Positions 3 to 928 of a stretch of 4,748 nucleotides of DNA are shown one piece after another (the first letter of the stretch is position 1; the number at the start of each line of letters is the position of its first letter). A program made the translations under genes and the position numbers. Source of the DNA: a virus. Taxonomy: Duplodnaviria; Heunggongvirae; Uroviricota; Caudoviricetes. The stretch lies in IMG/VR virus record IMGVR_UViG_2675903396_000016; one strand, 5' to 3'. Under the pieces are notes generated by a model, which saw only the letters and a program-made list of their open reading frames with translations, ran no database searches and was not told the origin of the DNA.

Positions 3-110
3 GATGAGCAGTTTGATGAAATCAATATCGTTCGTGCTCAGCCAGTATCTGGTGGACGTCTGGGGGTGAAGATTTACCCCATAATGCTTGAAGGGCAGGT
101 CAAAAAATGA
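3..110 (+). CDS. 3' end of an upstream gene, 5' partial, product not recognised
   Basis: Frame open from the window edge, translating ...DEQFDEINIVRAQPVSGGRLGVKIYPIMLEGQVKK*. Its TGA stop (108-110) overlaps the Q start ATG (107-109) as ATGA, an arrangement typical of translationally coupled phage genes. No family recognised. Confidence 0.4.
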   Translation, partial: DEQFDEINIVRAQPVSGGRLGVKIYPIMLEGQVKK

Positions 111-928
111 AACTGGAAGATTTACCGAAATACTACTCCCCAAAATCCCCCGGCCTGACTGATGCATCGGCCTCAACGTCGAAAGATACGCTGAGTATCA
201 CTGATGTGATGGCCGCGCAGGGCATGACACAGAATTGGGCTGAGATGGGGTTTTCTGCGTTCCTTGGGAAAATGGGCATTAGTATGAATGACAGAGAGCG
301 GGCAACAGAATTGCTGACAGAATATGCACTCAGTCGGTGTGATCGCGTGGCGGCGTTAAGAAAACTCCCGGCAGAAATAAAACCGGCAGTGATGCGTATT
401 ATGGCTTCGTATGCGTTTGAAGATTATGCCCGTAGCGCGGCGAGCAAAAAACAGTGCCCCTGTTGTCACGGAAAAAAATTTATTGAAAGCGAGGTTTTTA
501 CAAACAAGATCCAGTATCCGGATGGTAAGCCGCCAGTGTGGGCAAAGTGCACAAAAGGCGTGTATCCGTCTTACTGGGAGGAATGGAAAAAAGTCAGGGA
601 GGTGGTAAAAGTTGCCTGTCCGGAGTGTGGAGGGAAGGGGGAGGTTTCCACCGCCTGTAAAGATTGTCGTGGGCGCGGTGTTGCCATTCATCGTGAAGAG
701 TCGGTAAAACGTGGTATGCCTGTTATCAGAGACTGCCAGCGTTGTGGTGGTCGTGGCTATGAAAGATTACCTTCAACGGAGGCATTTAATGCCATATGTA
801 ATGTAACCGATGCCATATCTCTTGATACATGGAAAAAAACAGTTAAACGTTTTTACGATACGCTGGTGGTGCAGTTTGATATTGAAGAAGCATGGGCAGA
901 ACAACAACTGAAAAAGGTGACCAGATAG
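107..928 (+). CDS. Q: Late-gene antitermination protein Q, lambda-Q family, with four DnaJ-like CxxCxG motifs
   Basis: 273-aa ORF with an AGG Shine-Dalgarno 7 nt upstream of the ATG. The N-terminus (MKLEDLPKYYSPKSP...TDVMAAQGM) and C-terminus (TWKKTVKRFYDTLVVQ...VTR) match my recollection of phage lambda Q. Four cysteine motifs are visible: CPCCHGKK, CPECGGKG, CKDCRGRG, CQRCGGRG. A lambda-type PR' lies immediately downstream. Minus-strand and alternate-frame ORFs inside it are treated as spurious. Confidence 0.85.
   Translation: MKLEDLPKYYSPKSPGLTDASASTSKDTLSITDVMAAQGMTQNWAEMGFSAFLGKMGISMNDRERATELLTEYALSRCDRVAALRKLPAEIKPAVMRIMASYAFEDYARSAASKKQCPCCHGKKFIESEVFTNKIQYPDGKPPVWAKCTKGVYPSYWEEWKKVREVVKVACPECGGKGEVSTACKDCRGRGVAIHREESVKRGMPVIRDCQRCGGRGYERLPSTEAFNAICNVTDAISLDTWKKTVKRFYDTLVVQFDIEEAWAEQQLKKVTR

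Follow-up and report, generated by a model that had tools for sequence, protein, structure and literature searches.

Here, we describe a gene for an antiterminator of the Q-lambda family on a 4,748-nt stretch of Caudoviricetes DNA (IMG/VR record IMGVR_UViG_2675903396_000016; this whole stretch is referred to as the window). The window carries, in this order, RusA, Q, the late promoter and terminator PR'/tR', a TerB-like pseudogene, DUF3927, an STnc100-like small RNA (sRNA), a terminator, a NanS-p-type esterase, DUF1378, and DUF826. The Q gene, whose start codon overlaps the stop codon of the upstream rusA gene (ATGA, 107-110), very probably encodes a standard late-gene antiterminator of an Escherichia coli prophage in its long-arm version. 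The product has four zinc-knuckle motifs (M1 to M4) where phage lambda Q has two, and this four-knuckle arm is the usual design of the family, with lambda Q as the odd one out. The parts of the gene are as follows.

107-928, plus strand: Q antiterminator gene from the list of open reading frames (ORFs), ATG start, 273 residues, stop codon included in the coordinates
107-445, plus strand: residues 1-113, comprising the N-terminal segment and the first part (half) of the body, colinear with the same residue range of lambda Q (phmmer)
446-649, plus strand: block missing in lambda Q (a gap in the alignment), residues 114-181, with M1, a predicted hairpin, and M2
455-478, plus strand: knuckle M1, CPCCHGKK (C117/C120)
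617-640, plus strand: knuckle M2, CPECGGKG (C171/C174)
650-760, plus strand: zinc-ribbon arm equivalent to that of lambda Q by alignment to lambda 116-152, residues 182-218, with M3 and M4
656-679, plus strand: knuckle M3, CKDCRGRG (C184/C187)
734-757, plus strand: knuckle M4, CQRCGGRG (C210/C213)
761-925, plus strand: residues 219-273, the other, C-terminal half of the body, equivalent to the lambda Q helix-turn-helix region

The 273-residue protein belongs to the Pfam family Antitermination protein Q (PF03589), with a score of 168.1 bits (cutoff 26.7; E = 4.7e-50). An identical RefSeq entry, WP_000762928.1, is labelled 'antitermination protein', and the identical protein heads a cluster of 4648 member sequences of the same name; a RusA gene precedes the identical gene there as well. 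The four knuckles follow the pattern C-x-x-C-x-G-x-[GK], with M1 terminating in KK and not in GxG, and their starts are 54, 13, and 26 residues apart. A first-pass annotation, made from the nucleotide sequence alone, had given the length of 273 residues and four motifs at about 456-757, which is correct (455-757), and had rightly credited lambda Q with 207 residues and two such motifs, which lie at C118 and C144.

Lambda-like termini had also been claimed, and this was borne out. Among PDB sequences, the only real matches to the protein were the lambda Q entries 7UBM/7UBN, 4MO1, and 7UBJ-L (best E = 9e-41), and phmmer pairs residues 1-113 with lambda 1-113 and residues 182-273 with lambda 116-207. 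The difference between the two proteins is thus one block, residues 114-181 (68 residues), which holds M1 and M2; overall, the protein is 66 residues longer than lambda Q. The lambda Q structures (PDB 4MO1, 7UBJ-7UBN) contain one zinc site and have no counterpart of this block. In lambda Q, residues 61-113 and 153-207 form a helix-turn-helix 'body', residues 114-152 form a zinc-ribbon 'arm' that touches positions 11-13 of the Q-binding element, residues 110-112, 117, and 122-126 touch the zinc-binding domain of the RNA polymerase beta' subunit, and residues 1-60 are disordered in the free protein and refold on RNA polymerase (PMC9388147). With these limits, the extra block sits exactly at the junction of body and arm and enlarges the arm, which has ~39 residues in lambda Q and ~105 here, and its insertion point falls inside the surface by which lambda Q contacts the beta' zinc-binding domain. 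M3 and M4 align to lambda C118/C121 and C144/C147 with the same 26-residue spacing and similar flanks, so that C184, C187, C210, and C213 would make up an equivalent Cys4 zinc ribbon, spaced identically to that of lambda Q. As judged from sequence and model, this pair corresponds to the single zinc site of lambda Q and is predicted to bind zinc.

The additional pair of knuckles had been taken for a special, derived feature of this protein, a view that did not hold once the family as a whole was considered. Nearly all of the 120 best homologues from a search across 5.8 billion proteins, which were inspected and come from Escherichia, Salmonella, Klebsiella, Enterobacter, Citrobacter, Serratia, Pantoea, and other genera, have 260-277 residues and four CxxCxG motifs, and all eight cysteines are invariant or nearly invariant among 109 homologues. 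An exhaustive HMMER scan of 1.84 billion representatives at 50% identity returned 229 relatives, of which 32 full-length ones were aligned. The long form makes up 27 of these 32 and keeps the eight cysteines in every case, down to ~30% identity, while the distance between motifs M1 and M2 varies from about 6 to 55 residues. With this degree of conservation, the four knuckles are no accident of sequence. The complete M1/M2 pair is missing only from the lambda-like representatives P0216, P0184, and P0168 and from the atypical P0194. In most divergent long-form Q proteins, including that of phage phi80, M3 reads C-x-C-x-G-x-G (e.g., CRCHGKG), and plain counting of CxxC therefore gives three motifs despite eight conserved cysteines. 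The long form, defined in phage records as a single match spanning at least 80% of the Q query, is present in 131 of the 249 records with a Q homologue. By match length, the phages SfV, ST104, HK225, mEp237, mEp460, and phiEt88 as well as Stx2c-converting phages have the long form, and lambda, P22, HK97, and HK620 have the short form. Of 5426 complete E. coli genomes, 2477, i.e., nearly half, have this Q gene type (DNA identity and coverage of at least 80% each), 2418 have the type of E. coli K-12 QuuQ, and 1229 have the short type of lambda. Length and motif count of the protein are thus the norm for the family, and the four-knuckle Q is real but ordinary and already catalogued.

The same four-knuckle arm is present in phi80 Q (gp17, 269 residues; JX871397 41137-41946, corresponding to 11138-11947 of sequence L003), which is 41% identical over 273 residues with 4 gap positions (BLASTP, E = 1e-76) and colinear including the inserted module. 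Its knuckles are CDCCDGGG, CKPCNGKG, CRCHGKG, and CDRCGGRG, the third being C-x-C as opposed to C-x-x-C in the present protein. The M1-M2 hairpins of phi80 Q and of the Q in the window are clearly homologous (FTEAQVFTNKVSYPWGKPPYW...REVVRVKC versus FIESEVFTNKIQYPDGKPPVW...REVVKVAC), whereas the two proteins differ in the helix-turn-helix region around residues 225-245. QuuQ (YdfT, b1559; 250 residues), encoded by the Qin cryptic prophage of E. coli K-12, is 40% identical and has its knuckles in the same order (CEHCSGTG, CQHCHGKG, CRGCKGKG, CGRCNGNR), but its M1-M2 hairpin is ~21 residues shorter and it belongs to a separate allele group. QuuQ matches both PF03589 and the DnaJ cysteine-rich domain family PF00684, the latter above the cutoff at 35.4 bits. 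phi80 Q was reportedly studied together with lambda Q by Guo and Roberts in 2004 (J Bacteriol 186:3599); a literature search on the long arm of Q, which covered neither that study nor Vorobiev 2014, returned nothing relevant.

Structure prediction suggests how the enlarged arm might be built. In the AlphaFold2 (AF2) model, residues 1-26 have a predicted local distance difference test score (pLDDT) below 50, and helices start at residue 31. The extra block is predicted as a long beta-hairpin with strands 125-136 and 159-170 and two short helices at its tip. M1 is placed just ahead of the first of these strands and M2 directly after the second, i.e., both at the base of the predicted hairpin, and short predicted strands border both motifs in the layout of a zinc ribbon. 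In a model of the arm alone (pLDDT 79.3), only the M3-M4 part matches solved structures; its fit to the lambda Q arm spans 41-43 columns, with a root-mean-square deviation of 1.7-3.2 A and 38-39% identity (Foldseek against PDB). The same search gave no significant solved counterpart for the M1-hairpin-M2 part, and matches to the zinc modules of DnaJ and UvrA were non-significant (E of 0.8 or worse). We infer two tandem ribbons, M1 with M2 followed by M3 with M4, a pairing that draws on lambda homology and predicted secondary structure and in which M1 and M2 probably form a second zinc ribbon at the base of a long, variable hairpin.

Immediately 3' of the Q gene lies a region resembling the sites at which lambda Q is loaded and acts.

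934-961, plus strand: late promoter PR', with -35 TTGATT at 934-939, a 16-nt spacer, and extended -10 TGgTAAATT at 953-961
968-973, plus strand: -10-like element AACGAT, a putative pause element, at the predicted positions +1 to +6, identical to that of lambda, with a predicted pause near 983-984
1009-1033, plus strand: tR'-like intrinsic terminator (terminator scan), with a 7-bp GC-rich stem at 1009-1026 followed by T7

Assignment of PR' rests on alignment with lambda PR' and the annotated phi80 PR'. TAAATTTGCCCTAACGATGGG aligns with TAAATTTGACTCAACGATGGG of lambda and with phi80 PR', and the block AACG.TGGG is invariant in the alignment of window, phi80, and lambda. The sigma70-dependent pause element at which Q is loaded in lambda is AACGAT at +1 to +6, as reported by Ring, Yarnell and Roberts in 1996, and sigma-dependent pausing may likewise occur at 968-973. 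The PR' spacer, presumed to contain the Q-binding element, differs from those of both lambda and phi80, as is expected for a Q protein with its own specificity. The RNA of the terminator folds at -22.5 kcal/mol (z = -2.5), and the terminated transcript would be ~65 nt long, compared with 194 nt for the tR'-terminated transcript of lambda, whose terminator is visible near 960-975 of sequence L004. phi80 has a PR' with an AACGCT pause-like element and a terminator about 45-70 nt downstream. Conservation of the 120-nt PR'-tR' unit extends to 1658 E. coli genomes. The fragment 930-1040, which had been named as the cognate PR'-tR' region for a reporter assay, is a sound choice. A small hairpin with a 5-bp stem followed by TTTTAT (962-978, plus strand) overlaps the AACGAT element, and in the RNA fold the predicted PR' transcript begins with a stem-loop of its own ahead of the terminator; the hairpin may be a chance feature.

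By homology with lambda Q, the protein could operate as follows. Helix-turn-helix body and zinc-ribbon arm would bind the Q-binding element in the PR' spacer (934-961) while RNA polymerase is held at the sigma70-dependent pause induced by AACGAT (968-973). Within the arm, the first ribbon (M1 and M2) would clamp the base of the hairpin, and the lambda-equivalent ribbon (M3 and M4) would come next. The N-terminal segment would then refold and, together with NusA, form a nozzle at the RNA-exit channel, and the modified polymerase would read through the terminator at 1009-1033 and later ones, such as that at 1824-1850, into the esterase and lysis genes.

We put the probability that the ORF encodes a standard long-arm antiterminator of an E. 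coli prophage, adjoining its promoter, pause element, and terminator, and that the two-knuckle arm of lambda Q is a reduced form without the M1-M2 module, at roughly 85%. Several observations weigh against this reading or parts of it. PR' falls just below the threshold in a generic sigma70 consensus scan, and the literature searched holds no report on the activity of this Q allele. The lambda residues that flank the insertion point contact the beta' zinc-binding domain, so that docking of the long arm must differ to some extent. Confidence in the modelled arm is only moderate, with pLDDT values of ~70-85 and predicted template modelling scores (pTM) of 0.45-0.57 in the AF2 models. Finally, the representative P0194 (223 residues) keeps only M2 and M4, which fits poorly with a simple pairing of M1 with M2 and of M3 with M4.

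P0194 instead counts toward a nested topology as in the DnaJ cysteine-rich domain, in which M1 and M4 would share one zinc and M2 and M3 the other. This domain (PF00684, DnaJ_CXXCXGXG) likewise has four CxxCxGxG knuckles. Its Pfam match to Q spans M2 to M4 (residues 171-218) but remains below the threshold at 30.6 bits against a cutoff of 32.7, whereas QuuQ clears it, and Foldseek returned weak matches to DnaJA2 with a probability of 0.96 for the full model and 0.33 for the arm alone. However, the knuckle spacing of Q (54, 13, and 26 residues) is not that of DnaJ, and the DnaJ structural matches are non-significant, with E about 0.8. The lambda homologues of M3 and M4 coordinate zinc by themselves, their sequence and 26-residue spacing are kept in Q, and the modelled M3-M4 segment superposes on the lambda ribbon. 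M1 and M2, in turn, border a single predicted beta-hairpin on either side, which would bring them next to each other. As far as sequence and models can tell, the topology is likely tandem, and nesting, although it fares best among the alternatives, appears improbable.

The first-pass annotation had proposed that this Q is unusual in having gained a second zinc module through an internal duplication or an insertion, and with it possibly a new specificity, in an otherwise lambda-like family. The 66 additional residues, the two additional knuckles, and a promoter spacer unlike that of lambda speak for this proposal, and a 68-residue block that is extra relative to lambda Q does exist. Duplication, on the other hand, could not be demonstrated. 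BLASTP of residues 110-181 against residues 182-227 detected no recent internal duplication, the two arm halves sharing the knuckle motif only (best score 18.5 bits), and a DNA repeat search in the Q gene returned a single 12-nt match, out of register. With similarity confined to the motif and no in-register DNA repeat, we rejected duplication as a recent event; an ancient one may have taken place. The long arm is moreover the majority form in which all eight cysteines are universally kept, it is shared by phi80 Q and QuuQ, and the long type outnumbers the lambda type in E. coli genomes. An exceptional, newly elaborated Q is therefore very unlikely.

In at least one case, the direction of change was deletion. 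Outside the module, the short representative P0168 (200 residues) shares 82% identity with the long P0132, and what it is missing runs precisely from M1 to the first cysteine of M3, which makes at least one short form a recent deletion derivative. P0168 is apparently an independent lambda-like deletion, and the nearest representative of lambda Q outside its own cluster is the long form P0124, at 51% identity. This fits a long-armed ancestry with repeated loss, a history that the sequence comparison suggests. Recombination between similar knuckle-coding sequences could possibly account for such losses.

The gene might also be an inert remnant of a defective prophage in which the extra cysteines have no current function, since the TerB-like gene further downstream is interrupted by an in-frame stop and many E. 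coli prophages are cryptic. We regard this as a long shot. The Q ORF is uninterrupted, with 100% identity among many E. coli serotypes, the eight cysteines are conserved across genera, and the cognate PR'-tR' unit is conserved as well. Furthermore, an identical 273-residue Q, annotated as quuQ, is encoded ~2 kb upstream of stx2A/stx2B in the genome of the Stx2a-converting phage Stx2_EH1910 (L005, LC567834.1, 7001-11079), with a DNA methylase gene and three tRNA genes between Q and stx2AB. In some Shiga toxin-producing E. coli, this allele may thus drive Shiga toxin 2 expression. Pairing of Q and PR' is known to affect Shiga toxin expression (PMC6266700), which gives allele-specific properties of Q some applied relevance.

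A role as DnaJ-like chaperone or zinc-finger holdase in place of antitermination is barely conceivable and was rejected: the homologues P0029 and H70, the latter from a Klebsiella phage, bear chaperone names ('chaperone protein DnaJ', 'molecular chaperone') and NCBIfam DnaJ matches exist, but these are low-scoring (26 bits against a cutoff of 377 for the DnaJ_bact equivalog), Pfam and NCBIfam detected neither a J domain nor DnaJ C-terminal substrate-binding domains in Q, the full length of the protein is colinear with lambda Q, and its gene occupies the Q position between rusA and the PR'/lysis genes.

A further proposal, which we make only tentatively and consider doubtful, concerns the extra module. 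The M1-hairpin-M2 module may be a second zinc ribbon whose variable hairpin makes contacts that are impossible for lambda Q. Candidate partners of the hairpin may include an extended or differently spaced Q-binding element, sigma region 4, the beta' zinc-binding domain, and NusA. If true, the loading complex known from textbooks for lambda would represent a minimal, atypical case of how the family engages RNA polymerase, and short forms such as lambda Q would have arisen repeatedly through deletion between M1 and M3. Every mechanistic structure in the family is of lambda Q, a protein without the module found in most members, and how far the lambda picture can be generalized would be seen from a loading complex with a long-arm Q.

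The remainder of the window contains the following features.

1136-1420, plus strand: TerB/TciA-like reading frame with an in-frame TAG at 1232-1234 (Pfam TerB 20.5 bits, below the cutoff)
1630-1796, plus strand: strong STnc100 match (Rfam RF02076; score 101.6 bits, gathering score 47, E = 4e-22), a short distance 5' of the esterase gene
1824-1850, plus strand: strongest intrinsic terminator of the window, with a stem of 8 bp (7 of them GC) and a T8 tract, located past the STnc100-like element and ahead of the esterase start codon region at 1937
1937-3874, plus strand: NanS-p-type esterase of 645 residues with DUF1737, SASA, and DUF6645 domains
4022-4204: DUF1378 ORF, after the esterase gene
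within 4086-4511: DUF826 ORF, after the esterase gene

This locus is a typical late region of a lambdoid prophage of enterohaemorrhagic or enteropathogenic E. coli (EHEC/EPEC) without stx. An identical locus in E. coli genomes has the order DUF968, RusA, Q, and, further on, esterase, holin, and lysozyme, the latter two lying beyond the window, and an Stx2a phage shows the same gene order. In NZ_CP017442, which carries an identical Q gene, the annotation gives a TerB-family pseudogene containing an internal stop as the gene 3' of Q. According to a 2026 preprint, STnc100 is related to PasD sRNAs, which are located beside genes for PF03589 Q proteins and sialic-acid esterases in EPEC/EHEC prophages (10.64898/2026.05.13.724894). 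The terminator at 1824-1850 is probably that of the sRNA as well as a second barrier for Q-modified polymerase. The esterase gene that follows is ~82-84% identical at the DNA level to the yjhS/nanS-p genes of Stx phages.
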